Shown here one piece after another: positions 22,661 through 55,865 of a stretch of 64,000 nucleotides of DNA. The notes beneath the pieces are model-generated. The model was given only the letters and a program-made list of their open reading frames with translations. It had not been told where the DNA came from and did not search any database. The first letter of the stretch is position 1. Every line of letters starts with the position of its first letter. The DNA lies in assembly GCA_031415375.1 (NCBI GenBank), contig JANORP010000479.1, forward strand, positions 485 through 64,484. The letters are read 5' to 3'. This stretch comes from Bacteroidota bacterium. Its GTDB lineage: Bacteria > Bacteroidota > Bacteroidia > J057 > JADKCL01. A program made the position numbers and the translations under genes.

Positions 22661-23761
22661 ATGAGAAAGACATCAGCGCACTTCTGGATTATCCTGCTTG
22701 CAACCCTCTTGGGCCATCTATCCACCTCTGCCCAGCCTGTCGGCAAAAAGCTCCTCCTCGAGAAAATCACGAGTGCCGGCTGCCCGGGCTGCCCCAACGG
22801 TGATCTCATCTTGCAAAATTACCTCGCGGCCGACAGCAACCTGGTGCCTGTCGCGATCCACGTGAACAATGCTGCCCACGTGGACCACATGTTTTCAGCC
22901 GATGGCGACGCGATTTTGGCGGATTACCTCTGGGCCCACCCGACGCTCATGGTCGATCGTTACAAATTTCCCGGCATCCAATATGTCGCGGGTACATCGG
23001 GAAGCTGGAGCGCGATGATCAATGACCGCAAGCAGCAACCTCTCATTGGCACGGTCGGCGGCTCGACCACCTATACCAGTGGTGATCGCAGCCTACAAGT
23101 GCATCTAGAGGGTGCAATCCTCTGGGATCTGAGCTGGGACCTGCGGGTCAATGCCTACATCGTCGAGAATGGCGTGACCGGCACTGGCCTCGGCTATGAC
23201 CAACTGAACGGCAACAACACTACGCAGGGCCATCCTTTGCAAGGATTGGGCAACCCGATCGTGGGCTATGTACACAATTGGGTGCTGCGCGACATGCTCG
23301 GCGGCCCGCAGGGCGCGCCAGCATTTCCCAATCCGATCCCAGCCGGCCATCTCTACAGCTATGATTTCACGACGGCACTCGACAGCAACATCGACGCGAG
23401 CCAAGCCTATATCATCTTGGTCTTGCAGCGCTATGATGCGCTCAAGGAGCAACGCGAGGTGCTCAATGTTGCCAAACTTGGCCTCAACGGTGCCATTCTC
23501 GCAGGCGTGGAGATGCCTGCGCGGCAGCCGCTCGCGCTCCTGTGGCCCAATCCTGCCACTGACCGTGTACATGTGCAAGTCGGCGAAACCGCCGATTGGA
23601 CTGTCACCGCATTTGACCTGCAAGGGCGCAAGCACATGCAGACCGTTTTCTCGGGCGACGAATCCGATCTGAACACATCATCACTTGCTGCTGGCATCTA
23701 TCTGCTACGCTTGGAGTCGCCAGGCAAGCTTACGGTCACGCAAAAGCTGAGCATCCACTAG
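22661..23761 (+). CDS. Omp28-related/thioredoxin-like T9SS-secreted protein
   Basis: Signal peptide, an early CPGCP motif (EKITSAGCPGCPNGD) as in Omp28-related proteins, and a T9SS CTD (LLWPNPATDRVHVQV...KLSIH). Confidence 0.65.
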   Translation: MRKTSAHFWIILLATLLGHLSTSAQPVGKKLLLEKITSAGCPGCPNGDLILQNYLAADSNLVPVAIHVNNAAHVDHMFSADGDAILADYLWAHPTLMVDRYKFPGIQYVAGTSGSWSAMINDRKQQPLIGTVGGSTTYTSGDRSLQVHLEGAILWDLSWDLRVNAYIVENGVTGTGLGYDQLNGNNTTQGHPLQGLGNPIVGYVHNWVLRDMLGGPQGAPAFPNPIPAGHLYSYDFTTALDSNIDASQAYIILVLQRYDALKEQREVLNVAKLGLNGAILAGVEMPARQPLALLWPNPATDRVHVQVGETADWTVTAFDLQGRKHMQTVFSGDESDLNTSSLAAGIYLLRLESPGKLTVTQKLSIH

Positions 23762-23764
23762 CAG

Positions 23765-24616
23765 ATGAGGATGCGCAGCCCCGTCCAAGCGAGCGACGTC
23801 CATCGCTACGGTGATCAGACGCGCGGCAGCAGCGACATGCTAGCTGTGGAGGAACCATTGGAAATCAGATTGGAATTTGGGCCTGCCCAAGATCGGCGGC
23901 AGCGCAATATTGCGGTGACGATGCGCACGCCGGGGCATGATTTGGAATTGGCTGCGGGGTTTTTGTATGGCGAAGGCATATTGCGCGCGGTGACCGACAT
24001 CCAAAAGATCGATTGGTGTAGCAATGTGCGCAAACCCGAGGAATATGGCAATGTCGTGAAGGTCGATTTGGTGCCCGATGTGATGCCAGACTTGGACAAG
24101 CTGGACCGCAATTTTTACATGAGTAGCAGCTGCGGGGTCTGTGGCAAGGCGAGCATTGAAGCCTTGCAACTCGAGCGCTGCCCTATGCTTCCTGCTGATG
24201 GCATGCGCTTCAGTGCAGATTTCATCCGCAGCCTGCCTGCTATCGCCGACCAGGAGCAGACAGTCTTCAAGCACACGGGAGGCATCCATGCGGCGAGCAT
24301 TTTTGAGGTCTCGGGGGCGCTCTTGGTGCAACGTGAAGATGTGGGACGTCACAATGCCGTCGATAAGGCAATCGGATCCATGTTTCTCCAGGGCAAACTG
24401 CCCTTGCAGGACCATGTGCTACTCGTAAGCGGCCGCGCAGGTTTTGAATTGGTTCAAAAGGCCATCTTTGGCGGCATAGCAGTGATGGTGGCCATCGGGG
24501 CACCATCCAGTCTCGCGGTCGATTTGGCGCGGCAGCATGGGCTCTGCCTGGTGGGATTTTTGCGTGGCGAGCGATTCAATGTTTATGCGGGAGAAGGGCG
24601 TATCGGGCCTGCATAG
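23765..24616 (+). CDS. fdhD: formate dehydrogenase accessory sulfurtransferase FdhD
   Basis: 283 aa. SSCGVCGKASIE catalytic-Cys motif, plus GGIHAA and GRHNAVDK motifs. Confidence 0.9.
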   Translation: MRMRSPVQASDVHRYGDQTRGSSDMLAVEEPLEIRLEFGPAQDRRQRNIAVTMRTPGHDLELAAGFLYGEGILRAVTDIQKIDWCSNVRKPEEYGNVVKVDLVPDVMPDLDKLDRNFYMSSSCGVCGKASIEALQLERCPMLPADGMRFSADFIRSLPAIADQEQTVFKHTGGIHAASIFEVSGALLVQREDVGRHNAVDKAIGSMFLQGKLPLQDHVLLVSGRAGFELVQKAIFGGIAVMVAIGAPSSLAVDLARQHGLCLVGFLRGERFNVYAGEGRIGPA

Positions 24617-28831: not shown

Positions 28832-29427
28832 AAAATAGAAGCGATGAAAGACTGATGGGATTGTCTAGTCTATCCCAAACAAACTGTGGAACTTGAAATA
28901 CTTTGGCAGGGCCAAATCTGCAAACAATCTAGGGCAATCCACAGCCCTAAAAAGCACATATCAACCAATGAATATTGCACAAACGCAATATTTTCAGTAG
29001 TTTTAAATCATCGCTCTATTGAATTCTCAATAGTTCAATTCAAAGGCGATTGCTACGTCTATCTTGATCTACTCTCTCTAGGGGTATCCTCCTTTTTTTA
29101 CGACCTTCCTTTCATGCATATAGTGTATGCAGGGCCCTAAAAGTGACGGGGAATTTCTGCCTATTATGGATACCAATATCCTCCATTATATACTGCATGT
29201 AAATCCATTTTGAATACATTTATCTATAATTGATCATTTTCGATCCATTGAGATTATGATCGGCTCCATCCGCAGTGCTTGCCCCATGTTCACGATGCCA
29301 GCGCATCGGGCAAAGTCGTCGCCAATGTGCTGGCAAGCCCCGGGTAATGCAAAAATTCATCCCCTACATTTTTTCTCACCGAGATAGTGCGACCTTCGGG
29401 GAATTCGATGAAAAACACTGCAAGAAA

Positions 29428-30645
29428 ATGGGAATTGTAAGAAGGTTGTCCTACCTGCTCGGTGGGCTGGTACTGAGCCTCGGTGCACACGCCCAGCTCG
29501 ACACGATCATCCAATATGAGGTCGCCACTGGGGCCGTCATTGTCATGCCTTCTGTGGCTGTCGATACGAGCATCCACTTTGACCATACCGCCTATGAAAT
29601 CGGCCCCTTGGGAGACCAGCAGCTCTTGGATCTCGTGCCGCCCACCGCCAACCTATTCCTCAATTCTCAGTTCAGCGATATCGCCAGGACCGAACCCTTC
29701 ATGCCCGTCACCAGCTATCCTGCCCGCACAGCGATCAAGCTATCCTATTGGCACAATGACACCTTGCGAGACGACTGCTCGGGCATCATGGTAGGTGACC
29801 AATTTGTGCTCACCTCAGCACATTGCGTTTTTTCACACTCTGGCAACCCCACTTGGATTGGTGATAGCCTCCTAGCTGTGCCTGCCTATGACAACGGGCA
29901 GGCGCAGCCCAGTCTGCCCAGCAGCCTCGTGGAATATTGCTATATTTTCAAGACAAAATATGACAATACCTCTGGCAATGACCTCGCGCTGCTACAGTTG
30001 CGCACTCCCATCGGGCAGACAACAGGCTATGTCGGCTTTGCCTTCAGCTCAGATACCAGCTATTTCCGAGGAAAGGTCTTCCATAAATTCAGCTATCCAG
30101 CAGCGCGGCACATCATCGACACCACACGCGTGTACAACGGCGACACGATGTATTACAACTACGGCTACATCCGAGCTATCGGCAACCAATGGTTGGAGAT
30201 CCCTGCAAATTCAGCAATTGGTGTGCAGGGGCAAAGCGGGAGTACATTCCTCTATACTGACAACCAAGCCTATTATGGCTTTGGTGTCATGAATTTTGCA
30301 AGCCGTTGTCGCCATTACCCGATCCACCAAGGGGAGTTTTACCAGCTCAAACACATCATCGATACCCATCTGGTAAACGTCGCACCCTTAGCGCAACAGG
30401 CAACTTTGCTGCAAGCATATCCGAATCCCTTTTCGGAACAAACAACCTTGCGGTTTGCCAACCCCACGCACGCAGCCCATTGCCTGCGCCTATGCGACAT
30501 GCAAGGCCGGGTGGTACTGACGATCGATGGCATCCGCGATGAAGCGCTCACCCTCGATCGCGGAGATCTTGCCAGTGGCATGTATTCTTTCCAACTCCTT
30601 GCTGGCGAGCAGCTACGTGGATCGGGCAAGGTGATTGTAGAGTGA
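29428..30645 (+). CDS. trypsin-like (S1) serine endopeptidase with T9SS CTD
   Basis: Start moved to MGIVRRLSYLLGGLVLSLGAHAQ. Catalytic triad motifs LTSAHCV, GNDLALLQL, GQSGSTF. CTD: LQAYPNPFSEQTTLRF...KVIVE. Confidence 0.85.
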   Translation: MGIVRRLSYLLGGLVLSLGAHAQLDTIIQYEVATGAVIVMPSVAVDTSIHFDHTAYEIGPLGDQQLLDLVPPTANLFLNSQFSDIARTEPFMPVTSYPARTAIKLSYWHNDTLRDDCSGIMVGDQFVLTSAHCVFSHSGNPTWIGDSLLAVPAYDNGQAQPSLPSSLVEYCYIFKTKYDNTSGNDLALLQLRTPIGQTTGYVGFAFSSDTSYFRGKVFHKFSYPAARHIIDTTRVYNGDTMYYNYGYIRAIGNQWLEIPANSAIGVQGQSGSTFLYTDNQAYYGFGVMNFASRCRHYPIHQGEFYQLKHIIDTHLVNVAPLAQQATLLQAYPNPFSEQTTLRFANPTHAAHCLRLCDMQGRVVLTIDGIRDEALTLDRGDLASGMYSFQLLAGEQLRGSGKVIVE

Positions 30646-31007: not shown

Positions 31008-33341
31008 ATGGCCGAATTTGAAATTGAAGTCGAGATTCCACGTTACGTCCGCGCAGGTGTGCGCTTGCTGCCGCCTGAGAAGTTTCGTAACATCACGCTC
31101 ACACAGCCAGAAAACAAGGCTGCGGGCCTCAAGGCGGTCAAGGAGTCGCTCGCGCACCTGCAGCGCGAGATGGGCCTTGGAAAAGGGCTACGCCTCGCTG
31201 GCAAGATGAACCAACAAGATGGCTTTGATTGCTCGGGCTGCGCATGGCCCGATCCCGAGGACCATCGCAGTAGCCTCGGCGAATATTGCGAAAATGGCAT
31301 CAAGGCACTGGCAGAGGAGGCGACCGAGGCCAAGGTCGATCCTGCATTTTTCAGGGCACATGCGGTGGAGGAATTGAGCCTCTGGCCTGATTTTGAGCTG
31401 GGCAAGGCGGGGCGCATCACACAGCCCATGCTCTTGCGCAAAGGCAAGTCGCATTATGAGCCGATCGAATGGGAGGCTGCATTTGCGCTCATCGGGGAGC
31501 AGCTCAAAGCATTGGACAGTCCCGACGAGGCGATCTTCTATACCTCGGGCCGCACGAGCAACGAGGCCGCTTTCATGTACCAACTCTTGGTGCGTGCATT
31601 CGGCACCAACAACCTTCCCGATTGCAGCAATATGTGCCATGAGAGCAGCGGCACCGCGCTGAGCGCGACACTCGGCATCGGCAAGGGCAGCGTGAAACTG
31701 GAGGACCTCCATATCGCCGAGCTCATCGTCGTGATGGGCCAAAACCCCGGCACCAACCATCCACGCATGCTCAGCGCACTCAAGCAGTGCAAAGACAATG
31801 GCGGTACGATCATCGACATCAACCCCCTACAAGAAGCTGGCATGCAGCGCTTTATCAATCCTCAAAGCCCGATGGAGGTGCTCAAGGGGGGAACAAAGCT
31901 GGCAGATATGCACCTGCCTGTGCGCATCAACGGCGACGTGCCCCTGCTCAAAGGCATCGCCCGATTGCTCTGGGACTTGGAGCAAAAGGCACCCGGCAAG
32001 GTCTTTGACATGCCCTTTATCGCGGCCCATACGCTTGGCTACGATGCATTTTGTGAGGATATGAAGGCCACCGACCTCGCGGTCTGCGAACGCGAGAGTG
32101 GCATCTCCCTGGCCGATATGCGCAAGGTCGCCCAGCTGATCGCCAACAAAAAACGCATCATTTTTTGCTGGGCCATGGGCCTCACACAGCACAAGAATGC
32201 CGTCGGCAATATTCAAGAGATCGTGAATCTCCTGCTCTTGCGCGGCGCGATCGGGAAGCCAGGCGCAGGCACCTGTCCGGTACGCGGGCATAGCAATGTG
32301 CAAGGCGATCGCACGATGGGCATTTACGAGAAGCCCGCCGAACGCTTCCTCGCCGCGCTTGACAAGCGATTTGGCATCCAAACGCCGCGGCCACATGGCT
32401 ACGACACCGTCGAGGCCATCCATGCCATGCAAGACGGCAAAGGCAAGGTCTTCATTGCCATGGGAGGCAACTTCATTTCGGCGACACCCGATAGTGAGGC
32501 CACGGCCAAAGCATTGCAAAACTGTGACCTTACGGTGCAGATCAGCACCAAACTCAACCGCTCGCATGTCATCACAGGCGCCACTGCGCTCATCCTTCCC
32601 TGTATCGCGCGGTCTGAAACCGACCGCCAAAAATCGGGGGTGCAGCATGTGAGCGTGGAAAACAGCATGGGCGTCGTGAGCAAAAGCGTGGGGAGCGGCG
32701 ACCCTGCTTCTCGCTATTTGCTGAGCGAGCCGGCGATCGTGGCTGGCATTGCCAATGCCACCCTCCCCCACTCCATCCACATGAATTGGGACGATATGGT
32801 AGCCGATTACGATACCGTGCGCGACCACATCGAGGCGGTGATCCCTGGTTTTGAGGACTACAACCGCCGTCTCCTGCACCCGAACGGATTCTACCTGCCC
32901 AATGGTCCCCGCGAAGGCACATTTACGACCGACAGTGGCAAGGCGCACTTCACCGTCAATGCCCTCCCAGCAAACAAGCTGGAGCCTGGGCAATATGTGA
33001 TGATGACCATCCGCACCCACGACCAATACAATACCACGATCTATGGCCTCGACGACCGCTACCGTGGCATCCTCAATGAGCGCCGTGTGATCCTGATGAA
33101 TACCGACGACATGCATACCCTAGGCTTGCATTCGCGGGACAAGGTCGATCTCACCAGTCACTTCAGAGGCGAAAAACGCCACGCCCCAGGCTGGATCGTC
33201 GTGCCCTACAAGATCCCCAAGGGCTGCATGGCCACCTATTTCCCAGAGGCCAATGTACTCGTGCCGCTGGACAGCGTCGCCGACAAGAGCAATACGCCTG
33301 TGTCCAAATACATCGTCATTACGGTCACAAAAGCAGTATGA
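31008..33341 (+). CDS. FdhF/YdeP-family molybdopterin oxidoreductase
   Basis: Start moved to MAEFEIE (778 aa). NQQDGFDCSGCAWPDP, EYCENG, FYTSGRTSNEAAFMYQL, GTNNLPDCSNMCHESSG and GQNPGTNHPRML match the YdeP family closely. Confidence 0.9.
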   Translation: MAEFEIEVEIPRYVRAGVRLLPPEKFRNITLTQPENKAAGLKAVKESLAHLQREMGLGKGLRLAGKMNQQDGFDCSGCAWPDPEDHRSSLGEYCENGIKALAEEATEAKVDPAFFRAHAVEELSLWPDFELGKAGRITQPMLLRKGKSHYEPIEWEAAFALIGEQLKALDSPDEAIFYTSGRTSNEAAFMYQLLVRAFGTNNLPDCSNMCHESSGTALSATLGIGKGSVKLEDLHIAELIVVMGQNPGTNHPRMLSALKQCKDNGGTIIDINPLQEAGMQRFINPQSPMEVLKGGTKLADMHLPVRINGDVPLLKGIARLLWDLEQKAPGKVFDMPFIAAHTLGYDAFCEDMKATDLAVCERESGISLADMRKVAQLIANKKRIIFCWAMGLTQHKNAVGNIQEIVNLLLLRGAIGKPGAGTCPVRGHSNVQGDRTMGIYEKPAERFLAALDKRFGIQTPRPHGYDTVEAIHAMQDGKGKVFIAMGGNFISATPDSEATAKALQNCDLTVQISTKLNRSHVITGATALILPCIARSETDRQKSGVQHVSVENSMGVVSKSVGSGDPASRYLLSEPAIVAGIANATLPHSIHMNWDDMVADYDTVRDHIEAVIPGFEDYNRRLLHPNGFYLPNGPREGTFTTDSGKAHFTVNALPANKLEPGQYVMMTIRTHDQYNTTIYGLDDRYRGILNERRVILMNTDDMHTLGLHSRDKVDLTSHFRGEKRHAPGWIVVPYKIPKGCMATYFPEANVLVPLDSVADKSNTPVSKYIVITVTKAV

Positions 33342-34681
33342 GCAGCGCATCATCACATTCGCCAGGTCATCAGAAGATCACTGTCAGGTGCCTCCTGACC
33401 TGCGTCTTAGTCTGTCTTTTTGTGCCGATCGTTGCACAAAAAGGTCAATCAGCCCATGAAAGGCCAGTTGCCGCCGCGCAAAATCGGATTGCATTGCATG
33501 ACGAGACGCCTGGTCACTGCTTTGCATTTGTCTGGTGGAATCGGCTGGAATGGGACAGCCTGTGGCAGGAGACCTATACCTATTCCCCGCAGGGGCAAGT
33601 GATCGCCGTGCTGCATGACGCCTTTGCGAGCGGTGTATTCATTCCCTTTGAACGGCAGGCCATTGCCTACAGCAACAGCGGCTACCTGAGCGAGCGTGTC
33701 ACGCAACGCTGGGTCACAGGTATGTGGACCAACGCAGTGCGCGAAACCTGGGCGACCGATGCACAAGGCAATGACACGCTGCGGATAGCCTATTCTTGGC
33801 GCCAAATACAAGGTCAGTTTGGATGGGACACCACCTCGGGCGACCATTCGATCATCGCGTATGATGGTAGTGGGCAAATCACCAATAGCGAAACCTCGTA
33901 TTGGGTGGCAGGGTTCCCTAGGGGACATTGGGAAAGGCTTTCTAGAAGCGAATATTTTTTTGATGGCCTTGGCCAATGGGATTCACTCATTGTCTCCAGC
34001 CCATCGGGCAATGCATGGGTCCCCAGCAATCGACTCGTGCAAGTCCAGTGGCACGACTACGCATTGGGCCAGCGTAGCGGCTACCGCACGCAATATTACC
34101 AAGGCTCCTGGATCGATGCCCAACGGGTCAGCTGCGTCTATCAAGGGCTCGGCAGCAATTGCGTCTCAGAGTCCTACACCAACAATGCATGGGATACTAC
34201 TTACCGCGAATCTCGAGATTTTGATGTCGAGGAGCACCTCACCCAGTGGGAGCGGCAAGAATTCAACAACGGCAACTGGCTCATTTCCAATGGTGGAAAA
34301 CATTTCTATACCTACAATGGGATTGGGCAGACCGAGCAAGTAATCGACCAGAGTTGGGATCCTACCATCGGTTACCTCAATGCGCAAAAGCGGATCTATG
34401 ATAGTTTTTTTGTCAGTGCGACGACTCCACAGGTGAGCGATTGGGCTGTGACAGCATTCCCCAACCCTGTCACTGATGTCTTGCATATCCAGAGCCGCAC
34501 GCGCGAGCAAGTATGCATCAAGGTGCTCGACATGCAAGGCCGCATGCGCATGCAAGCCACACGCCTCTTCGCGGGAGAATGCACGATCCCCATCTCAGAC
34601 CTGCTCCCCAATGGGACTTATTTCTACCAAGTGTCGAGCAAGACAGGTCAGGCCCAAGGCAAATTCATTTTGCTACGATAG
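33338..34681 (+). CDS. Trp-rich repeat T9SS cargo protein, paralog 1
   Basis: Signal peptide, ~10 repeats of ~30 aa ending in W(N/D)G..W with YTY(D/N)G.GQ cores, and a CTD (AFPNPVTDVLHIQ...KFILLR). The ATG overlaps the ydeP stop (ATGA). Confidence 0.85.
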   Translation: MSSASSHSPGHQKITVRCLLTCVLVCLFVPIVAQKGQSAHERPVAAAQNRIALHDETPGHCFAFVWWNRLEWDSLWQETYTYSPQGQVIAVLHDAFASGVFIPFERQAIAYSNSGYLSERVTQRWVTGMWTNAVRETWATDAQGNDTLRIAYSWRQIQGQFGWDTTSGDHSIIAYDGSGQITNSETSYWVAGFPRGHWERLSRSEYFFDGLGQWDSLIVSSPSGNAWVPSNRLVQVQWHDYALGQRSGYRTQYYQGSWIDAQRVSCVYQGLGSNCVSESYTNNAWDTTYRESRDFDVEEHLTQWERQEFNNGNWLISNGGKHFYTYNGIGQTEQVIDQSWDPTIGYLNAQKRIYDSFFVSATTPQVSDWAVTAFPNPVTDVLHIQSRTREQVCIKVLDMQGRMRMQATRLFAGECTIPISDLLPNGTYFYQVSSKTGQAQGKFILLR

Positions 34682-34783
34682 CCCTCCAGCAAGCCCCAAG
34701 GTTTCATTTTTGAGCTGGGATCGAGGAATTTTTTCTACTGGGTTTTGAGAAGGGAATTGCGCCTTTTCAAGTATCTTTACCGT

Positions 34784-36091
34784 ATGCGTAACACGATATT
34801 GACAGGAATCCTTGCTTGCCTACTGCTTCAACTTGCCCATGCGCAAACCCGCATTCACCGTCCACTGCATGAGGATGAAGGCAGGCAATTGACTGTAGCC
34901 TCCAAGGTGAGCAGCCACAATGACCGTCCACAGTTGTACACGACATTTAGCTGGATGGACTCTTTGAGCGCCTGGGACACGATTTCGCAGACGACGCTGA
35001 GCTATGATGGCAACGGATATCTTGTGGAGGAAGTCACATCCAACTATTTGGGCAATGCTTGGATCCCCTCGTTTCGTGCGTTGTATGTACACGATGTGAA
35101 CGGGAGATATATCGATGAACGGTACTTTGATTGGAACGGCGCAAGTTGGGATTCGACCATACGGTATGTCTCTGCCTATGATGCCGTGGGGCGGCCCAAT
35201 CTGTTTCTGATTATCCAGTGGAATGGAACCGCTTGGGATACGATCAATGGTACACGATCGGTCTATACCTATCGCAATGTCGATCAAGTGGAAAGCAGAG
35301 TGAAGTCACGCTGGCAAACGCTGCAATCGACTTGGACACTCATAGACTCGACATGGTACAGCTACGATGCCGCCAACGAATGGGATACGGTCACCACCTA
35401 TAGCTATGCTGGCCCCGGATGGACTGTTTCAAACAGGACTGTGGGTTATACCTGGTACGATTTCAGCAAGCGCCTTCCTTACACAGGGAGGTATCAAACC
35501 TATGGCACTGGTTGGACCGACTATACCCGCTACCGCGCTATCTATGGTGCCAACGACAGCCAAACCTTTGTGTACCATACCTACAATGCCCCCAACTGGG
35601 ACTCGACAGGCAAGGAAGTCTTTGTGTATGATGCGCAGGAGCATCTCATCGACTACCAATACTACGATTGGATCGGCGCATGGGAGCAAAGCGATGGCCA
35701 ACTGAATCATTATACTTATGATGGCACTGGACAGACATTGGAACTCGTAAGGGAGCAGTTTGATGGTTACCTCTACCGCTTTGATCGCCGATTTGTATAT
35801 GCCAATTTCTTGGTTGGCATCGCGATACCCACATTGCCAGCAATCAAGGTGCGCGCATTCCCCAACCCGGTGGCCGATCACCTGCAATTCAGCGTGGAGC
35901 AAAGCAAGCCTGGCCCTGTGAGCATACAACTGTATGACCTCCAAGGCCGCTTGCGTGCAGAGACACTGGTGCAACATGCCGACGGCGTGATCGACTTTCC
36001 GATTCCTGTGCAACTGCCGAGTGGTAGCTATAGCTATCGCCTCATAACACGCGAAGGCAGCGCCACTGGCAAGGTCATGGTGTACCAATAA
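34784..36091 (+). CDS. Trp-rich repeat T9SS cargo protein, paralog 2
   Basis: Start moved to MRNTILTG... Same architecture as paralog 1. CTD: AFPNPVADHLQF...YDLQGRLRAE...KVMVYQ. Confidence 0.85.
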   Translation: MRNTILTGILACLLLQLAHAQTRIHRPLHEDEGRQLTVASKVSSHNDRPQLYTTFSWMDSLSAWDTISQTTLSYDGNGYLVEEVTSNYLGNAWIPSFRALYVHDVNGRYIDERYFDWNGASWDSTIRYVSAYDAVGRPNLFLIIQWNGTAWDTINGTRSVYTYRNVDQVESRVKSRWQTLQSTWTLIDSTWYSYDAANEWDTVTTYSYAGPGWTVSNRTVGYTWYDFSKRLPYTGRYQTYGTGWTDYTRYRAIYGANDSQTFVYHTYNAPNWDSTGKEVFVYDAQEHLIDYQYYDWIGAWEQSDGQLNHYTYDGTGQTLELVREQFDGYLYRFDRRFVYANFLVGIAIPTLPAIKVRAFPNPVADHLQFSVEQSKPGPVSIQLYDLQGRLRAETLVQHADGVIDFPIPVQLPSGSYSYRLITREGSATGKVMVYQ

Positions 36092-36194
36092 TTGCCTATT
36101 TCCGCATAGGTGCAAGGCTATAAATTCGTATCGACCGCAGGCTCTCAGTATTTGCGGCTTGTTATACGTTTTCGAATTCATAGAATCCCCCCTT

Positions 36195-37511
36195 ATGCGC
36201 TACAAAATTGTTTGTCTTTTTTTGCTATTCCTTGCATCTGCCAGTGTGCATGCACAGCGCCGCTTGCAGGGTTTTGAAAAACGCGTGACTGCAAATACAC
36301 AGGCGAAACCGCAAACAGGCAACAAGATCGCGACCCACGACGATTACCCGACCTTGTGCCTGAGTTTTGACTGGGACAGTACCATGACACTATGGGACAG
36401 CACCTACCGCACGACCTTTACCTACAACGTCAATGGAAAAGTGCAGGAGGAACTCTGGGAGCAATACAACGGCAATACCTTTGAAAACTTTACCCGCAGT
36501 GCAAATGCCTACAATGCGCAGATGCTCAGAGATACACTGACTTCCTGGTATTGGGATGGCACTGCATGGCAAAAAGACGCTCGCAGTGAGTGGACCTATG
36601 ATGTCAACGACAATGTGGCCGTTTCAGTAGAATATTTTTGGAGCGGGAGCACTTGGGACACCGCCTATGGTCAACGCTATGCGAATACCTATGTGCTGGG
36701 AAATCGCCTCGTCAAGCAACAGCAGGAAGACTGGAGTTCAAGTACTGGCTGGACCAAAAATTATCTGAGCGAATACTACTACCCGGCTGCCAATGGCTGG
36801 GACAGCGCTGTCTTTTCCACTTGGAATGGCATCGCTTGGGAACTCCAAGAGCGCTACCTCGACCTCACTTGGTATGATTTTGCAAAAGAATTGCCTTATT
36901 ATGCACGCATTCAACGGTTTATCAACCCCGGCTGGGAAGACTCCGATCGGTTCACCGCCACCTACGGCCCCTTTGACAGCCCCAACTTCCTCTATGAATG
37001 GTGGAATGGGAATGCATGGGAAAACGACTACAAGGAAGTGATCTTGAATGATGCTGAGGAACATGAAATTTCCTACGAAGGCTTTGAATGGCTCGGTGCT
37101 TGGTCGCAGATAGATGGCTACCGTAGCAACTACACCTATGATGGACAAGGCCATACGATGGAGATCATCAATGAAACCTATGTCGGGTCGGTCTATGAGC
37201 TGAGTCAACGCAGGGTGTATTCCTCCTTTTTCACTGGCCTCGACGATGCCCCACGCGCCGCATACGTAAAGGCATGCCCCAATCCGTGCAATGAACGCGT
37301 ACAATTTGCATTGGAAGCTGGCACGCTGGGGCTTGTAGAGATCACCCTGTATGACATGGCTGGCCGCCTGCGCGCGCAATCCATTTCCCAAGTGGGCAGC
37401 GAAGCAGCTGTCGCCATGCCACTGTCAGCAAGTTTAGAGACCGGGCACTATACCTACCGCATCTCGACGGCGCAAGGCAAGTACAGCGGCAAGCTTGTCA
37501 TCCAGCACTGA
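36195..37511 (+). CDS. Trp-rich repeat T9SS cargo protein, paralog 3
   Basis: Start moved to MRYKIVCLF... Same architecture. CTD: ACPNPCNERVQF...KLVIQH. Confidence 0.85.
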   Translation: MRYKIVCLFLLFLASASVHAQRRLQGFEKRVTANTQAKPQTGNKIATHDDYPTLCLSFDWDSTMTLWDSTYRTTFTYNVNGKVQEELWEQYNGNTFENFTRSANAYNAQMLRDTLTSWYWDGTAWQKDARSEWTYDVNDNVAVSVEYFWSGSTWDTAYGQRYANTYVLGNRLVKQQQEDWSSSTGWTKNYLSEYYYPAANGWDSAVFSTWNGIAWELQERYLDLTWYDFAKELPYYARIQRFINPGWEDSDRFTATYGPFDSPNFLYEWWNGNAWENDYKEVILNDAEEHEISYEGFEWLGAWSQIDGYRSNYTYDGQGHTMEIINETYVGSVYELSQRRVYSSFFTGLDDAPRAAYVKACPNPCNERVQFALEAGTLGLVEITLYDMAGRLRAQSISQVGSEAAVAMPLSASLETGHYTYRISTAQGKYSGKLVIQH

Positions 37512-37633
37512 AAATGAGCATTGAAAACATTCTCTTTTCCAATATCTTGGCTCGAATTTTGACGCATTTGCAGTAGTTCAAACAGAGCTCACCGCAAGAT
37601 ATTGTACTTTTTCATGCATCACCTCAAAAACCA

Positions 37634-38953
37634 ATGATTATGCGTATTTCGACTTGTACATTTGCTTTCCTGATTTTACTTACGGCGACAGGCTTTGCCC
37701 AAAGACGTCTTGATACGTTCAAGAACAAAGTCCACAGCCACCATGGGACGCAGGCTGCGAGTAAGGCCGCTTCCCACGATGACTTACCCACGATGTGCAA
37801 CAATTTTGATTGGAATGATACGCTGAATCAGTGGGATTCTACGTCACGCACCCATTTCACCTATTTCCCCAATGGCGATTTTGCAGAGGTTATCTCTGAA
37901 CAATATGTCGGCCTCACGTTCGTTCCTTCCTACAGAGCGACCTACTCCTTCAACAACCAGACAAATACTTACAAATCAATTAATTATAACTGGAATGGGA
38001 GTGTTTGGGAAAATTCTTATCGGTCTGACGAGACGCGTGATGTCAATGGCAACCCCATTTTATTCATCGATTATTTCTGGAACGTAAGCCAATGGGATAC
38101 ATCAGGCGGAGAGCGACTCAATCTCTCCTACGTACTCGTCAATAAAATCGGTCAATCGGTCTCTGAAGTTTGGAATGCTGGCCTTTGGGAGACGCGGTAT
38201 CGGGAAGAATATGCTTGGCCCAACGCCCAAGGTTGGGATAGCGCGACCTTTTCCGATTGGAATGGCAGCGCATGGGATTACACTGAGCGCTATGTCGATG
38301 TCACGTGGCATGACTTTCCCCAATTTCTAGCCACTACTGCACGTTACCAGAGCTACGTAGGGCCGCAATGGGAAGACGGTGATCGATTTACTGCGACTTT
38401 TGGGACTTATGACAGCTACACCCAAATTTCGGAAGAATGGACCGGCAGCAGCTGGGTCAATAGCTACAAAGAAGTGAACGTAAATGATTCCTTGGAGCAC
38501 AATACCCTCTTTGAAGACTACATTTGGAATGGCCAATGGGATCCAAGTTATGCATACGCCACCGCCTACACCTATGACCTACAAGGTCATACAGAGGAGG
38601 CCATCTATCAAAGCTCAACGAATGGCGGCCCCTTCATCAACAACTATCGGCAGGTCTATTCGACCTTCTTTACCAATGCGCCTGACCCAGACATGGCCAC
38701 CACAAGCGTGCAAGCCTATCCCAATCCTTGCACGGATCGCCTCAATTTCATGGTGGAATTGCAGCAAAACGGTCCTGTGCAAATCGCGCTCTACGACTTG
38801 CAAGGTCGCTTGAGAGCACAGACGCTTACACCAGCACAAGTCGGCCAGGCCATCACCATCCCCGTTTCTGAGGTTTTGGAGAATGGGACTTATGTCTATC
38901 GCGTGACCAGCAAGCTGGGCGAGGCGACCGGCAAGGTGGCTGTGCAACGATAG
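37634..38953 (+). CDS. Trp-rich repeat T9SS cargo protein, paralog 4
   Basis: Same architecture. CTD: AYPNPCTDRLNF...YDLQGRLRAQ...KVAVQR. Confidence 0.85.
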   Translation: MIMRISTCTFAFLILLTATGFAQRRLDTFKNKVHSHHGTQAASKAASHDDLPTMCNNFDWNDTLNQWDSTSRTHFTYFPNGDFAEVISEQYVGLTFVPSYRATYSFNNQTNTYKSINYNWNGSVWENSYRSDETRDVNGNPILFIDYFWNVSQWDTSGGERLNLSYVLVNKIGQSVSEVWNAGLWETRYREEYAWPNAQGWDSATFSDWNGSAWDYTERYVDVTWHDFPQFLATTARYQSYVGPQWEDGDRFTATFGTYDSYTQISEEWTGSSWVNSYKEVNVNDSLEHNTLFEDYIWNGQWDPSYAYATAYTYDLQGHTEEAIYQSSTNGGPFINNYRQVYSTFFTNAPDPDMATTSVQAYPNPCTDRLNFMVELQQNGPVQIALYDLQGRLRAQTLTPAQVGQAITIPVSEVLENGTYVYRVTSKLGEATGKVAVQR

Positions 38954-38977
38954 CAGCTGGCTGCAATCACTTTTGAA

Positions 38978-39039
38978 CATGAAGTGCTGAGGCTTTTGCG
39001 CGATGGAGCGCTTATGCCTCAGCACTTCATGCTTTTTTG
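38978..39039 (+). terminator. strong rho-independent terminator after paralog 4
   Basis: Perfect 16-bp stem CATGAAGTGCTGAGGC / GCCTCAGCACTTCATG with a 22-nt loop, followed by CTTTTTTG. Confidence 0.85.
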
Positions 39040-39177
39040 CACACGGAGATCGCTGTTTTTGGATGGAGGAATCTCGCATTTTCGATCCCGAATCAGGCAA
39101 TTGTGCTATTTTGCGGCTTCAATGCTGAGCTTGCAATTGCAAACGACAGCCAGTTTTCAATTTCGCAATAAGAAATC

Positions 39178-40473
39178 ATGCGTCACGCTTTCCTGATCAC
39201 CCTGCTTTGCACACTCATCTGGCCATTATGGGCGCAGCAATTGCCGACAGGCGCAGCCTCAAAATCCGCCCCCTTTGCATCCGCCAAAACTGCAAGTCAT
39301 ATGGATACACCATTGACTTGTTGGGAATTTGCGTGGACAGACTCGACCAGCGCTTGGGACAGCACCCAGCAGACGACATTTACCTACACCATCAATGGCC
39401 ATGTACAAGAGGAAATCATTTCCTATTACATCTTGGGCGCTTTTGAACTGTCTCAGCGGTCTGTGAATACCTATACCGCCAATGGCAAACTCAGCGATAC
39501 ATGGCTGTTTTACCGCAATGGCAATGCATGGGACTCGACCATCGAGCGCCATTATCGTTACGATGCCTTCGGCAACGACACCCTCTTTTATGAGCGCAAC
39601 TGGAATGGCCTATTTTGGGAAACGACCGCTGGCGAATACAAAGTCCTCACCTACCGCAACGTCGATCAAATCGAGACCAAAGTCGGCTCCCAATGGGCCT
39701 TTTCGCAAGGCGTCTTTGTGCGCAACGACTCTGTCGTGTACACCTTTGACGGCAACAATGCATGGGCGAGCGATACGCACTATGGCTGGAATGGCAGCGG
39801 TTGGGACCCGAGTTTTAGGTGGCTGGACTATGTGTGGTACAACAACAGCCTGGTATTGCCCAGCGCAGCCCGCAAGCAAGTCTTCACGACCGCTTGGGAG
39901 GATCAAGAGCGCTTTCGTGCGACCTACTGGCCATTCAACAGCCCGGTTGCCATCTACGAATCCTACATTGCCCCCAACTGGGATACGACTTTCAAGGTAG
40001 ATATCATTTATGATGCACAAGGCCATGAGCGCACGAGCGAATATTATGTCTATCAATCTGGCTGGCAGCTCGCCCTCGGCGAGCTCAACGCCTACACATA
40101 CAATGGCAATGGGCAGACCGTCGAGCGCATCCGCCAATCATTTGATGGACTGGGCTATGTCAATGACCGCAAGTATGTCTATGATGCATTTTTTGTAGGT
40201 GCGGCCTCGCCGGCCACGCAGTCGCTCGACGTGCAAGCATTCCCCAATCCAGCCACAGATCGCTTGCAATTTCGGCTGCGCGATGTGAAGCCCGGCCCGG
40301 TGCAAGTGCAGCTCTATGACCTGCAAGGTAGGCTGCGTGCAGAGACGCGCCTCGCGCATGCGGGCGAGGTCATCGTCTTTCCAATTTCTGAGCAGCTGGC
40401 AAATGGCTGCTACACCTACCGCTTGACCACCACCGCAGGTCAAGCATCGGGCACGGTCATCGTGCAGCACTGA
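39178..40473 (+). CDS. Trp-rich repeat T9SS cargo protein, paralog 5
   Basis: Same architecture. CTD: AFPNPATDRLQF...YDLQGRLRAE...TVIVQH. Confidence 0.85.
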   Translation: MRHAFLITLLCTLIWPLWAQQLPTGAASKSAPFASAKTASHMDTPLTCWEFAWTDSTSAWDSTQQTTFTYTINGHVQEEIISYYILGAFELSQRSVNTYTANGKLSDTWLFYRNGNAWDSTIERHYRYDAFGNDTLFYERNWNGLFWETTAGEYKVLTYRNVDQIETKVGSQWAFSQGVFVRNDSVVYTFDGNNAWASDTHYGWNGSGWDPSFRWLDYVWYNNSLVLPSAARKQVFTTAWEDQERFRATYWPFNSPVAIYESYIAPNWDTTFKVDIIYDAQGHERTSEYYVYQSGWQLALGELNAYTYNGNGQTVERIRQSFDGLGYVNDRKYVYDAFFVGAASPATQSLDVQAFPNPATDRLQFRLRDVKPGPVQVQLYDLQGRLRAETRLAHAGEVIVFPISEQLANGCYTYRLTTTAGQASGTVIVQH

Positions 40474-40635: not shown

Positions 40636-40989
40636 ATGCTACGCAAGATCACCCTCCTCTTTTCCCTTGTATGTACACTTGCCACGATGAGCATGGCGCA
40701 ACGTGGCGAATTTCCCTGGCAGGTGGGCCGCACGGCCGCTCCTAGCAGCGAGAGCGCACCCTCGTTTTTGGGGGTGCATATCCACGCAACGGGCTACCCC
40801 GATGGCGCTGTCACGGTCGTGCTCCATGACCTGCACGGCCTCACGTGTGCCCGCGTGCATGCCTACTCGCAGCACGGGGAGATCATCCTCCCCATTCCCA
40901 AGCACCTCGCCAACGGTCTGTATCTGTACCGCATCCCCACCTCGGGCGCCCCCATCGAGGGTAAATTGGTCGTGCAGCGCAGAGGATAG
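40636..40989 (+). CDS. mini-protein: signal peptide plus T9SS CTD-like domain only
   Basis: 117 aa. MLRKITLLFSLVCTLATMSMAQ, a ~20-aa linker, then a CTD-like segment (VTVVLHDLHGLTCARV...NGLYLYRIPTSGAPIEGKLVVQ). The canonical PNP motif is replaced by YPDGA. Confidence 0.55.
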   Translation: MLRKITLLFSLVCTLATMSMAQRGEFPWQVGRTAAPSSESAPSFLGVHIHATGYPDGAVTVVLHDLHGLTCARVHAYSQHGEIILPIPKHLANGLYLYRIPTSGAPIEGKLVVQRRG

Positions 40990-41026: not shown

Positions 41027-42163
41027 ATGAGAATACCCATCACGCGCCTATTGCCATTGCTTTGCCTGCTGCTCTCCACGCAGCTTGCCCACGAGCTATC
41101 TGCACAGTGCAATGGGGATCCCGCCCTCTGCAGCAAGCGCTTTGACGAGGTCTGCTACGTCACGACGCACAACGCCTTCAATTACCAAGGTGCCTTCCTC
41201 TTCCCCAACCAGAGCTACGACATCGCAAGACAACTGCAAGATGGCGTGCGCGGGTTCATGCTCGATGTGTATTGGTACAACAATCGGCCTACGGTCTATC
41301 ATAGCAGTAATTTTCTGGGCAATCAGCCGCTGATCGACCTTTTGAATGATGTCAAAGTCTTTCTCGATGCCCATCCCAGCGAGGTCATGAGCATCATCTT
41401 TGAAAGCTACATCAGCGCGGCGCAGATGAGCGATGTATTCACCCAAGCTGGACTCCTCCCCTACCTGCATGCGCAGCCGATCGGCAGCGCATGGCCCACC
41501 CTCGCAGACATGATTGCAACCAACCATCGCCTCGTCGTGCTCAGCGACGCCAACGATGGCCAGGCCTACCCGTGGTACCACTACGTCTGGAACTACGCGG
41601 TAGAGACCGACTACACCGCCCACGGCCGCAGCGACTTCAGCTGCGCCTACAACCGAGGGGATAGCAGCAACAGCCTATTCATCCTCAATCACATGATCAC
41701 ACAAGCGAGCCTTGGTTACGGCCTCATCGACTCCGCTGCCGCCGTCAATGCAAATCCCTATCTCACCAGCCGTGCCATGGGCTGCTGGGCTGCCACTGGC
41801 AAGCTGCCCAATTTCCTCACGGTAGATTTTTATGAGCAAGGTGATGTGATGGCGGCCAAAGATGCGCTCAATATGGGTTTTGTAGGCGCTGATGTCGCGG
41901 GAGTACGCAACAATACACCTGTACAAATCAGCCCCAATCCAGTAACCGAGCATTTTCTGCTGCAGTGGAATGCAAAATCGTCGGGTACCACGGCCTTTTC
42001 GCTCTACGATCTACAAGGTCGCCTGCAGATGCAGGTCCCGATTCCTGCAACCCAAGGCCCATTGAAGATCGATGTGCCCCATAGCCTTGCGAATGGCACC
42101 TATTTTTGGCAGGTGACCGGCCTTCATGGAGCCGACCATGGCAAGGTGATCGTGCTGCGCTGA
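41027..42163 (+). CDS. PI-PLC X-domain-like phosphodiesterase with T9SS CTD
   Basis: Signal peptide; AQCNGDPALCSKRFDEVCYVTTHNAF, GVRGFMLDVYW...TVYHSS, PNFLTVDFY. From memory it resembles the plant/bacterial PI-PLC X domain-containing (At5g67130-like) family. CTD: ISPNPVTEHFLLQW...KVIVLR. Confidence 0.75.
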   Translation: MRIPITRLLPLLCLLLSTQLAHELSAQCNGDPALCSKRFDEVCYVTTHNAFNYQGAFLFPNQSYDIARQLQDGVRGFMLDVYWYNNRPTVYHSSNFLGNQPLIDLLNDVKVFLDAHPSEVMSIIFESYISAAQMSDVFTQAGLLPYLHAQPIGSAWPTLADMIATNHRLVVLSDANDGQAYPWYHYVWNYAVETDYTAHGRSDFSCAYNRGDSSNSLFILNHMITQASLGYGLIDSAAAVNANPYLTSRAMGCWAATGKLPNFLTVDFYEQGDVMAAKDALNMGFVGADVAGVRNNTPVQISPNPVTEHFLLQWNAKSSGTTAFSLYDLQGRLQMQVPIPATQGPLKIDVPHSLANGTYFWQVTGLHGADHGKVIVLR

Positions 42164-42189: not shown

Positions 42190-43059
42190 ATGCAACCCTG
42201 CAAATTCCTTGTGGCCATTTCTCTGCTGCTGTCAGCGGCTTTGCTCCAGCTGCTGTCGGCCCCGACCGCCTTGGCCCAATGCAACGGCGACACAAACCTC
42301 TGTGGCCGGCGATTCGACCAAGTCTGCTTTCTCTACACCCACAACAGCTACAATGTGCGCGGCGCGCACAAGCTGCCCAATCAAAACCTATCGGTCGCCC
42401 AGCAACTCGCGCTCGGCGTGCGTGGCTTGATGCTCGATGTATATGCCCACCACGAAAAGGTGATGCTGTACCATGGCAAGCGCATCTTGGGGCATCGACC
42501 ATTGCTGGAAGATTTGAAAGCCATCAAAGATTTCCTAGATGCACACCCCACAGAGGTGATGAGCATCATTTTTGAAAGCTACATCAGCCCAACGCAGATG
42601 GCATCTGCGCTCGCGCAAGCGGGCCTGCTCCCTCACTTGCATATGCAGGCGCGCGGTGTCCCTTGGCCCACACTCGGGGAGATGGTCGTCTCAGGACAAA
42701 GGCTTGTCATCTTTTCAGAGAAAGACCAAAGCAATCCCTACCCTTGGTTGCACCATATCTGGGATTTCGCGACAGAAAATCACTATTCCAACCATGGCCG
42801 CGCCGATTTTAGCATGCGCTACAACCGAGGCGATAGTACCAATGGACTCTACCTGATGAACAATTTCATCACCCATCGCAAATTTGGGACAGGCCTTCAA
42901 GACTCGGCCATCGTCGCCAATGACAAGGATTTCATTCTCATGCGCTGCGCAGAGCTCGCGCGCATGCAAGGCCGCATCCCCAACTTTATCGCTGTCGATT
43001 TCGTGGAGATAGGCGCGGCAAAGGCAGCCGTGGATCAGGTGAATTTACAGGGCAGGTGA
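42190..43059 (+). CDS. PI-PLC X-domain-like phosphodiesterase, paralog without CTD
   Basis: Signal peptide; AQCNGDTNLCGRRFDQVCFLYTHNSY, GVRGLMLDVYA...MLYHGK, PNFIAVDF. It ends right after the catalytic domain. Confidence 0.75.
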   Translation: MQPCKFLVAISLLLSAALLQLLSAPTALAQCNGDTNLCGRRFDQVCFLYTHNSYNVRGAHKLPNQNLSVAQQLALGVRGLMLDVYAHHEKVMLYHGKRILGHRPLLEDLKAIKDFLDAHPTEVMSIIFESYISPTQMASALAQAGLLPHLHMQARGVPWPTLGEMVVSGQRLVIFSEKDQSNPYPWLHHIWDFATENHYSNHGRADFSMRYNRGDSTNGLYLMNNFITHRKFGTGLQDSAIVANDKDFILMRCAELARMQGRIPNFIAVDFVEIGAAKAAVDQVNLQGR

Positions 43060-55600: not shown

Positions 55601-55865
55601 GGTTTTTCCCGTAGGAAACGCCCCAGAGGTAGCGTGCACGCAGACCAACGCCGATCAGGCTATGGTCGTTTTCGACGATTGGGACTTCAAAAGTAGCCCC
55701 AAATCCGCCGCCGCCTATGGTGCGCACATCTGAACTTTGCCATTCGACGCCACCATTCAACCCAAACCGCACTGCGGCTCGCGTTTCTTCTTTGATCTGC
55801 GCCTGGGCAAAAAGCCCACGCGAAATTCCAAGAAACAATAAAAAGAGAGGTAAAAAACGCTTCAT
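49665..55865 (-). CDS. giant outer-membrane-anchored repeat protein (N-terminal beta-barrel, 4 Ig-like modules, 18 Cys/His modules)
   Basis: Start moved to MKRFLPLFLLFLGISRGLFAQ (2066 aa). Barrel-like region at ~55074-55865, four ~95-aa Ig-like modules at ~53820-55020, then the ICHIPPGNP...HGD.QGAC array. No T9SS CTD. Confidence 0.9.
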   Translation of the reverse strand: MKRFLPLFLLFLGISRGLFAQAQIKEETRAAVRFGLNGGVEWQSSDVRTIGGGGFGATFEVPIVENDHSLIGVGLRARYLWGVSYGKNLKPTTDFNFPGGQNYLNHRTSATNWDLELLLKANRLRANTGILLYVWGGVGVMGYKPKQNNFDEFFSSTPYNYASQIGNGSILSVGTQLDFLRDGTSETRVPVPSWAHWRFAPSVGIGFGYEFSRYFAMSAEWKITFPQTDLLDGFAATNNNAFNYNKDIHHYAGLSLDFGLFGGGSYHSTTPTDPHVYTPSGDGAAIVMVMPSGPTYEVPGVCRFEVKARIYNVHSKALVIFTQNGTTVDPASFSFNESTGEFSAMVNLAPGINNFTLTARNRYANATQSFSATCQAPIIIPIDPQPTGVPPQIFVTYPTACPAIMADCRGVIKVTVYNIRSKQDVAVYHNGLQVPIQYYEYYPSSNEVVMNVDLTPGDHRFEFIAQTPFGRATATAMLRCPEAQPNLPGVVIITPSITPFVSPNCLQTVVATITGVQSKNDISVYVDRVLLSPNAWSYNPNTRQVTLTVSLMQGIESIVEIIASNQFGRASDIQMLRCYQQLPPPDVVIVRPTGGVYQGSDCNQIVTAQIFNINGIQDIRVLFGNSVVSPQNYSFNPMNQLFVMDVPLTPGIVEQFTIIGTNSVGTDQASVSLSCTQPVEQQITICHIPPANPANVQTLTIPVSQWLGHQGHGDIQGACSQTMVTICFQGQQISISQSALGAFQNMGATTGPCQEPNIQICHIPPGNPAAAATMTIPQSAWSMHQGHGDVQGACSGTKLTICYNGQNITVSQTVWPVYQNLGATQGPCPPRTVTICHIPPGNPAAAQTLTIPETAWASHQAHGDVQGPCSTTMVVICYQGQTMTVSQSAWPVYQNLGATQGACPPRQITICHIPPGNPTAPVTMTINENQWAAHQGHGDVQGACATQQTTLCYQGQTVTVSNTAVQALLSLGATQGACPPQEIQICHIPPGNPSGAMTITIPQSAWAAHQGHGDVQGACSSNLISICYQNQTLLISESVWPYYQSLGATRGACPTRTIQICHIPPGNPSGAQTITIPENAWLGHQSHGDTQGACNMTPMTICYREGDSRTGQTLQIPTAAWPAYQALGATQGPCPVQSITICHIPPGSPNSPQTLTIPMTEWPSHQAHGDVQGTCDMSTVTICHVGTTRGQSTTMQIPRASLAYHLSHGDTEGPCPDPEITICHIPPGNPGNPQTLTIPQSAWAAHQAHGDTQGACNLTPVQICIDGQTMSVPQAAWPSYQSQGATQGPCPVQEITICHIPPGDPSHPQTIVIPQSAWASHQSHGDTQGACNMTMVVICLNGREVQVPRASLQVYLTQGAIEGDCPQENEITICHIPPGNPGNPQTISIPQSAWPAHQGHGDTQGACNMTPITICFNDQTITVPTAAWPSYQSQGATQGACPEPQIVICHIPPGDPSHPQTITIPQSAWASHQAHGDTRGACNMTMIRICLNGQDLNVPTASWAVYQSQGAVQGECPEADITICHVPPGDPSHPQTLTIAPSAWPAHQAHGDQQGACNMTPMRICYNNQEINIPTSSWAAYQALGAQQGDCPEQQLTICHIPPGNPGNPQTITVPASAWPAHQAHGDTQGACNTTPVTICVDGQTMTVPTAAWPAYQSQGATQGPCPEPQLTICHIPPGNPRNPQTLTIPQSAWAAHQGHGDTQGACNMGGMTICLNGETMNITNATFNYYQLQGATQGPCPEVDITICHIPPGNPDNPQTISVPPSAWPAHQAHGDTQGACNMTMMSICADGNTRQIPTAAWPYYQSQGWIQGPCPSQGITICHIPPGNPENPQTLTIPQNAWPAHQAHGDTQGACNMTLMSICIDGQNMNVPSSSWAAYQSQGATQGPCPEARITICHIPPGDPLHPQTIEIAESAWAGHQSHRDVVGACNLQQITICYQNQTILIPIVSWPIYQEQGATQGACLEGDQGRSNGGGKPVDGGVKPIDGGGKPAVVPVGGKTGVVDGKGAVKQPVVAKIVICHIPPENPKAPVTLEIPATDWAVHAKHGDKQGACPPVSGKVVPK
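49668..53819 (-). repeat. in-frame coding tandem array, 225-bp period (17 full units of 75-81 aa plus 1 half unit)
   Basis: Counted from the translation. Every unit starts with I(T/Q/V)ICH(I/V)PP. The unit count is 18, with a Gly/Lys/Pro-rich linker before the last unit. Confidence 0.9.

Follow-up and report, generated by a model that had tools for sequence, protein, structure and literature searches.

The 64,000-nucleotide (nt) stretch of DNA analyzed here (the window) belongs to contig JANORP010000479.1 of a Bacteroidota bacterium and contains a head-to-tail array of five genes for predicted type IX secretion system (T9SS) cargo proteins. The five consecutive open reading frames (ORFs) span positions 33338 to 40473 on the plus strand, encode products of 431 to 447 amino acids (aa), and are separated by spacers of 102, 103, 122, and 224 nt. 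They are referred to as paralogs 1 to 5 (p1 to p5), and their coordinates are given in Table 1. In the p2 ORF, a TTG codon is present at 34745, ahead of the first ATG. The five products can be aligned end to end with pairwise identities of 27 to 44%, with p2/p5 (44%) and p3/p4 (43%) being the closest pairs and p1 being the outlier (27 to 33%). The alignment shows conserved W, Y, R, D, and G positions, and Trp accounts for 3.9 to 4.8% and Tyr for 4.7 to 8.7% of the residues. A hidden Markov model (HMM) of the protein body only detected exactly five copies within the window. An earlier reading made from the sequence alone (the sequence-only reading) described five clearly diverged plus-strand paralogs with one architecture, which is borne out by the ORFs, the alignment of all five proteins, and the signal peptide and C-terminal domain (CTD) that each of them carries.

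All five N termini possess a hydrophobic segment that ends in A-Q, a cleavage context between A and Q, and a 12-aa hydrophobic window with a Kyte-Doolittle mean of 2.3 to 3.1 lies inside the first 30 residues of each paralog. The signal peptides were called by hydrophobicity, the A-Q ending, and a lipobox check of the sequences, which revealed no lipobox in p1 to p5. In the AlphaFold2 models of p5 and p1, the N-terminal helix is followed by disorder, and the signal peptide is separated from a post-signal motif by some 20 aa of disordered linker. This motif was previously written as (A/S)SH.D.P..C..F.W. Its H, P, F, and W do not vary across the five paralogs, but p2 has Tyr in place of the Cys. 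The sequence-only reading listed the individual motifs in the wrong gene order, which is the sole correction to its observations. At the other end, all five paralogs matched the type-A CTD model TIGR04183 with 37.5 to 38.8 bits (cutoff, 23), as the sequence-only reading had stated, and PF18962 with 25.6 to 40.2 bits (cutoff, 27), with two of the five above the cutoff. The C-terminal beta-sandwich of the AlphaFold2 models matched the mirolase CTD (8qb1) in a Foldseek search. The CTD was the only match of p1 to p5 to Pfam and NCBIfam models at an E value of ≤1, and the body of about 300 aa (roughly 350 aa with the signal peptide and linker) had no match.

When the sequences were stacked at intervals of about 29 aa, ten repeats were found in each protein, with an approximate unit of x-x-G-x-h-x3-h-x3-W-N-G-x-x-W-x4-R-x4-Y-D. 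The N-terminal five units aligned with the C-terminal five with an hhalign probability of 97.5% and an E value of 8.6e-12. Structure prediction with AlphaFold2 for p5, with a 13-sequence family alignment as the input, yielded a model with a mean predicted local distance difference test score (pLDDT) of 82, reaching about 90 over residues 45 to 340, and a predicted template modeling score (pTM) of 0.63. The model consists of twenty long strands forming ten hairpins, followed by the CTD beta-sandwich. The most divergent paralog, p1, showed the same layout with about 20 strands (pLDDT, 74; pTM, 0.56). The ten or so repeats of about 30 aa in the sequence-only reading are found both in the sequence stack and in the models, and of the two folds that it expected from AlphaFold, a beta-solenoid or a stack of beta-hairpins, the models show hairpins. 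The body is strongly predicted to be a 20-strand antiparallel meander, with the W-N-G-x-x-W turn along one edge and a Y-D-x-x-G-N turn along the other. According to the DSSP strand boundaries of the models, the two Trp of W-N-G-x-x-W would lie opposite one another at the hairpin turn, and the sequence and secondary structure together suggest that one sheet edge carries a W-W pair on alternate strands.

A Foldseek search of both models against the PDB revealed the best matches to be type VI secretion system (T6SS) Rhs cores (8qja, 8qjc, 8uy4, 8cp6, and 8h8b), Tc toxin BC components (4igl and 5kis), and teneurins, with E values of 1e-7 to 1e-9 and probabilities of 0.97 to 1.00 for p5 and 0.72 to 1.00 for p1. 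The DUF3836 structures 4r8o and 4r03 and the BF3112 structure 3msw superposed better over three to four hairpins, with target-normalized template modeling (TM) scores of 0.5 to 0.6, and these small Bacteroides structures showed root mean square deviations of 3.7 to 5.5 Å over 93 to 155 columns. In the Foldseek results, 4r8o and 4r03 had a probability of 1.00 and target TM-scores of 0.56 to 0.60 over 93 to 97 columns, with E values of just 1e-3 to 7e-3, and a sequence-profile search of the PDB gave a weak match to 4r8o (E value, 0.047). The family profile also aligned with a relative annotated with both RHS_repeat and CTD (P0011) over 347 columns, with an hhalign probability of 99.6% and an E value of 1.2e-23. 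Together with the leading Foldseek matches, this agrees with the likeness to YD/RHS hairpins that had been noticed from the sequence. The hairpin sheet is strongly predicted to be a remote relative of the Rhs/YD repeats and is probably also one of DUF3836.

The prominence of T6SS Rhs effectors and Tc toxin BC components among the Foldseek matches, together with the PF05593 matches of some relatives, could also mean that the array proteins are polymorphic toxin carriers of the Rhs type, in which a miniature YD cage delivers a toxic domain via the T9SS. However, the CTD directly follows the repeats and no C-terminal toxin domain is present, the C terminus is conserved rather than polymorphic, and the genes are not each followed by a small ORF resembling an immunity gene. 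A motif search of p1 to p5 found neither of the autoproteolysis motifs DPxGL and PxxxxDPxGL, and the body of about 300 aa and 20 strands is far below the size of an Rhs-type shell of roughly 1000 aa. The reading as a toxin cage was rejected on the missing motifs and the small size and is highly improbable, since the defining features of Rhs are absent. As far as the sequences allow, the array proteins are strongly predicted to be without a toxin, an Rhs autoproteolysis motif, or a recognized catalytic domain.

A word-indexed protein search retrieved 12 relatives, and the family thus appeared rare. In contrast, an exhaustive profile search of 1.84 billion representatives of 50%-identity clusters retrieved 419 representatives at an E value of ≤1e-30, 6,232 at ≤1e-10, and 25,893 at ≤1e-3. 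Since the CTD alone cannot reach 1e-30, the body is shared by at least the 419 representatives at that threshold. Among the 145 best new representatives, 130 were 380 to 520 aa long. In 60 to 95% of them, the N-terminal motif retained its Pro and two Trp and each hairpin its W, Y, R, D, and G positions; the SH.D residues H and D were specific to the subfamily. The common length and conserved columns indicate a domain of ten hairpins with a fixed length rather than a solenoid that can expand. Of 92 relatives sampled, 89 carried the CTD, 16 matched RHS_repeat (PF05593), and 16 matched DUF3836 (PF12930). Where the sources gave a name, it was "T9SS type A sorting domain-containing protein"; examples came from Hymenobacter cellulosivorans (WP_244717349.1) and metagenome-assembled genomes (MAGs) of Chitinophagaceae and Bacteroidales. 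The sequence-only reading could not name the family and implied that it was rare, and this does not hold for a family of 419 clusters at an E value of ≤1e-30 with links to RHS_repeat and DUF3836. As judged by sequence comparison, the array consists of old paralogs that belong to a single large, uncharacterized Bacteroidota family.

The array recurs in relatives with a conserved setting and a variable number of genes. A JGI metagenome contig (L003) has the same arrangement as the window, i.e., YdeP, five family genes, and a PI-PLC-like CTD protein. In the Bacteroidota MAG JANMIM01, YdeP is followed by three complete copies and one partial copy on a first contig (L001), and one partial and three complete copies precede PI-PLC on a second contig (L002), so that the copy count of this MAG is a lower bound of at least eight. 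Five tandem copies were detected by the body-only HMM in an unrelated context (L005), two copies flank an ice-binding-like gene in L006, and Hymenobacter (L004) has a single copy. The copy number, whose comparison had been proposed, is therefore 5, 5, and at least 8 at the loci with ydeP, the array, and PI-PLC, and 5, 5, at least 8, 5, 2, and 1 across all of the loci examined. The presence of arrays in unrelated loci indicates that tandem arrays are a recurrent habit of the family, and array expansion thus extends beyond the window instead of being replaced by a ubiquitous single-copy gene in the relatives. The ice-binding-like (PF11999) gene between the two family members of L006, a distant relative, is located at 11787 to 12563 of that contig. 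Its position could be due to chance or could be a hint of an ordered-surface ligand.

A neighbor-joining tree grouped the copies of the window and the two relatives into three clades. Clade I contains p1 and the YdeP-adjacent copies of both relatives (J1 and M_A1), which share 40 to 42% identity with p1, and in all three genomes it is the clade I copy that adjoins ydeP. Clade II contains p3, p4, and the expanding middle copies, including a lineage-specific pair in the MAG that is 56% identical, and clade III comprises p2, p5, and the final copy in L003. All three clades are older than the split from the two relatives, which is consistent with the earlier view that the duplication is not recent.

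To compare the array with that of a close strain, JGI 3300079869 (contigs L007 and L008), dN/dS (the ratio of nonsynonymous to synonymous substitution rates) was calculated by the Nei-Gojobori method. The values for the orthologues were 0.125 (p1), 0.148 (p2), 0.161 (p3), 0.217 (p4), and 0.127 (p5), with similar values for the body and the CTD. The range of 0.12 to 0.22 in all five indicates that these are constrained, functional genes. The longest DNA repeats inside the array are ≤93 nt with identities of 60 to 79%, and the only strong inverted repeat (I1) is the terminator following p4. The array repeat analysis revealed no gene-conversion tracts, cassette switching, or invertible promoters or elements. 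These short, low-identity repeats and the single inverted repeat give no sign of recent conversion or switching, and recent gene conversion or cassette switching was ruled out on the repeats.

These results bear on the suggestion, made in the sequence-only reading, that the array provides antigenic variety. Antigenic variation, or a decoy function against phages or predators, would involve surface variants generated by diversifying selection or switched expression. The YdeP flank is 86 to 87% identical to the genes of L001 and L003 and the PI-PLC flank 65 to 72% identical to those of L002 and L003, while the best cross-genome matches of the array copies share 40 to 50% identity, far below both flanking genes. 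This divergence is in line with such a function, as are the turnover in copy number and the immunoreactivity of Porphyromonas gingivalis PG1798/PG99 (PMC9722745, PMC7712824), which resembles the family by its size and annotation. However, every orthologue pair is under purifying selection, the repeats are too short and divergent for cassette recombination, no inverted repeats flank promoters, and every copy is full length with its own signal peptide and CTD. Antigenic variation is therefore less supported, because all copies are constrained and no switching machinery was seen, and it is quite improbable as an explanation of the array.

The transcription signals divide the array. An intrinsic-terminator-like hairpin with arms at 38978 to 39001 and 39008 to 39031, followed by a T-run, lies 3' of p4. 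Its fold of -46 kcal/mol has a z score of -6.5, none of 200 shuffles was equally stable, and the hairpin is kept after the p4 orthologue in L008. A scan with a consensus terminator missed this hairpin, because its loop exceeds the 3- to 8-nt limit of the scan, and returned counts at the shuffle level. The strong terminator that had been noted after p4 was thus confirmed, and its stability and conservation make the previously proposed division into at least two transcription units reasonable. Matches to sigma-70-type promoters were at the shuffle level, and an Rfam scan of the whole window gave no matches. In L008, about 370 extra nt containing GC-rich palindromic stretches (1390 to 1760, compared with 39040 to 39100 of the window) form an indel between the terminator and the region upstream of p5.

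At the left end of the array, the start of ydeP was placed at MAEFEIEV by comparison with its orthologues, and its stop overlaps the start of p1 as ATGA, as the sequence-only reading had stated. The same overlap of the longest ORFs was found in the two relatives (L001 at 4621 and L003 at 4088, compared with 33338 in the window). The annotated start of the first paralog of L003 is about 45 residues before the signal peptide, and the true start may be downstream of it. The recurrence of ATGA suggests that the translation of a secreted protein is coupled to that of a cytoplasmic molybdoenzyme. In this arrangement p1 would probably be cotranscribed with ydeP, and the p4 terminator would leave p5 as a separate transcription unit.

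The division into separate units and the variable copy number are also relevant to the possibility that the paralogs, rather than individually binding external ligands, are structural components of a surface coat that co-assemble through the open edges of their beta-sheets to give a surface layer or a multisubunit shell. Open-edged single-layer sheets can pair at their edges, the strands of five copies, at 20 per copy, roughly amount to those of one Rhs shell, the fixed length of ten hairpins across 130 representatives suggests a defined geometry, and purifying selection acts on all copies; all of these points would fit such a coat. In contrast, the copy numbers across the loci argue against a set stoichiometry, and the terminator after p4 splits the array. 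A co-assembled coat is less supported because of the variable copy number and is considered unlikely.

The features of the array and its surroundings are listed in Table 1. Between p5 and the conserved right flank is an ORF of 117 aa, the last 60 aa of which best matched the CTDs of p5, p4, p2, and p3 (E values, 5e-9 to 2e-6), with a weak match to TIGR04183 (E value, 0.018). This ORF is present in L008 and absent in L003 and L002, and it could represent either what is left of a sixth paralog after the loss of its body or a minimal T9SS cargo protein. In total, three PI-PLC-X-like genes occur on the plus strand within 26 kb (17505 to 18794, 41027 to 42163, and 42190 to 43059), the latter two being adjacent paralogs. 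A weak, sub-threshold match to B_lectin was found for one of the three and a T9SS CTD for another, and the remaining gene is without a CTD. The molybdenum-cofactor genes for MoaA and FdhD are located within 12 kb of ydeP and are interleaved with T9SS cargo genes. The neighboring cargo with CTDs includes a trypsin-like protease, a PI-PLC-like enzyme, and PKD/GEVED and Omp28-like proteins. In addition, an ORF of 2,086 aa on the minus strand (49665 to 55925) has no Pfam match at an E value of ≤1e-3 and lies in a stretch with a higher GC content (58 to 59%) and a reversed GC skew.

Table 1. Features of the five-gene array and of its surroundings in the 64,000-nt window
Feature	Position (nt)	Strand	Description
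Paralog 1 (p1)	33338-34681	+	447 aa; clade I, most divergent; signal peptide, 10 hairpins; CTD at nt 34457-34669
Paralog 2 (p2)	34784-36091	+	435 aa from first ATG; clade III; CTD at nt 35858-36082
Paralog 3 (p3)	36195-37511	+	438 aa; clade II; CTD at nt 37278-37505
Paralog 4 (p4)	37634-38953	+	439 aa; clade II; CTD at nt 38717-38947
Intrinsic-terminator-like hairpin and T-run, 3' of p4	38978-39040	+	Perfect 16-bp core stem in 24-nt arms
Paralog 5 (p5)	39178-40473	+	431 aa; clade III; hairpin body at nt 39304-40197; CTD at nt 40240-40467
FdhF/YdeP-family molybdopterin oxidoreductase (ydeP)	31008-33341	+	TIGR01701, 914 bits; conserved left flank
117-aa ORF	40636-40989	+	Signal peptide, linker of ~25 aa, CTD-like domain
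PI-PLC-X-like protein with T9SS CTD	41027-42163	+	Pfam PI-PLC-X, Por_Secre_tail; conserved right flank
MoaA	18954-19952	-	Molybdenum-cofactor gene
FdhD	23765-24616	+	Molybdenum-cofactor gene
Omp28-like protein with CTD	22661-23761		T9SS cargo gene
Trypsin-like protein with CTD	29347-30645		T9SS cargo gene

We consider it fairly probable that the array encodes toxin-less, nonenzymatic proteins with a YD-like sheet that are exported by the T9SS, probably function in binding, and derive from old birth-and-death duplication. The array would have originated by ancient tandem duplication followed by lineage-specific gain and loss. Each protein would cross the inner membrane via Sec and be exported by the T9SS, after which the CTD would be removed and the body either released or anchored at the cell surface. 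The aromatic-rich sheet may then serve as a noncatalytic binding or adhesive surface, with each paralog possibly having a separate, conserved specificity. Diversification of the ligand range among the paralogs is plausible.

Several points weigh against this account. Even at an E value of ≤1, p1 to p5 matched neither PF05593 (RHS_repeat) nor TIGR01643 (YD_repeat_2x), and the Pfam scan at the same threshold gave no match to PF12930 (DUF3836). The global TM-scores to Rhs shells are only 0.08 to 0.31, which indicates that the local hairpin geometry is shared and the overall shape is not, and with pTM values of 0.56 to 0.63 the curvature of the models is uncertain. The binding role is deduced from the lack of a catalytic domain, the aromatic repeat sheet, and the export signal, and the evidence for the T9SS consists of cargo genes bearing CTDs, so that secretion is predicted. 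Finally, the exact Bacteroidota -7 box TAnnTTTG is absent from every array spacer, and the transcription units are therefore only partly defined.

A more specific proposal is that the ten-hairpin Trp ladder is a distinct, undescribed T9SS passenger that binds an ordered surface, with the arrays acting as a panel of specificities. The stripe of W-W pairs along one edge would have a spacing of about 10 Å, and crystalline polysaccharide or the envelope of a prey or host cell would be candidate surfaces. In its extreme version, the paralogs would assemble edge to edge into a multisubunit Rhs-like cage, which the variable copy number disfavors. The proposal as a whole is rather unlikely.

T9SS cargo proteins without a recognizable passenger domain constitute a large share of Bacteroidota secretomes. 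With the array proteins, one such group of cargo now has a fold class, the YD/DUF3836-like hairpin sheet, as well as a fixed domain definition (ten hairpins and about 300 aa) and a size estimate of hundreds of 50%-identity clusters. The conserved locus is suited to genetic study of this abundant, unstudied passenger domain. If the body is a binding module, it would represent a new adhesin or carbohydrate-binding scaffold and offer a first clue to what the DUF3836 proteins of gut Bacteroides do. Although the array is real, it belongs to a large, conserved, unstudied family and does not indicate a new type of system. At present the result is a better annotation, namely, YD/DUF3836-like T9SS cargo.

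Among known systems, the Rhs/YD proteins share with the array proteins the repeated beta-hairpins, the Y-D-x-x-G turn, and the single-layer antiparallel sheet. The Rhs/YD repeats are about 20 to 21 aa long. In contrast, those of the array proteins are about 29 aa long and have an additional W-N-G-x-x-W turn. The array proteins have only ten hairpins and lack the closed shell, plug, and toxin of Rhs, and their export signal is the T9SS CTD, whereas Rhs and Tc proteins are exported by the T6SS or the Tc system. In the models, they would resemble a short, open piece of a YD sheet that falls outside Rhs proteins both by sequence model and by the features of a toxin cage. The DUF3836 proteins (PF12930; 4r8o, BVU_1206, and 4r03, BDI_3222) and BF3112 may share the local hairpin-sheet geometry. 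However, DUF3836 proteins comprise about 100 to 140 aa and three to four hairpins, and the solved examples have no CTD, whereas the array proteins combine ten hairpins with a CTD. No paper naming DUF3836 was found in the literature search, which for the T9SS together with YD/RHS repeats gave nothing on this family except a table entry for PG1798.

That entry concerns P. gingivalis PG1798/PGN_1767 ("PG99, RHS repeat protein," 405 to 423 aa), which is listed as T9SS CTD cargo and, as PG1798/PG99, was detected in proteomes of P. gingivalis as well as in host-protein pull-downs and proved immunoreactive (PMC7712824, PMC9722745). By description, it is similar to the array proteins in its size and its annotation with RHS and a CTD, and it could be a studied relative. 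Word-indexed searches with a profile of 92 sequences and with P0170, a member from Bacteroidales, returned generic names and did not return PG1798. PG1798 occurs as a single gene, and its carrier is a host-associated anaerobe, whereas the array proteins are encoded by five genes in tandem. With T9SS type-A cargo in general, the array proteins share the signal peptide and the C-terminal type-A sorting domain. Most characterized T9SS cargo proteins carry an enzymatic or known adhesin domain, whereas the passenger of the array proteins is an unannotated domain of hairpin repeats.

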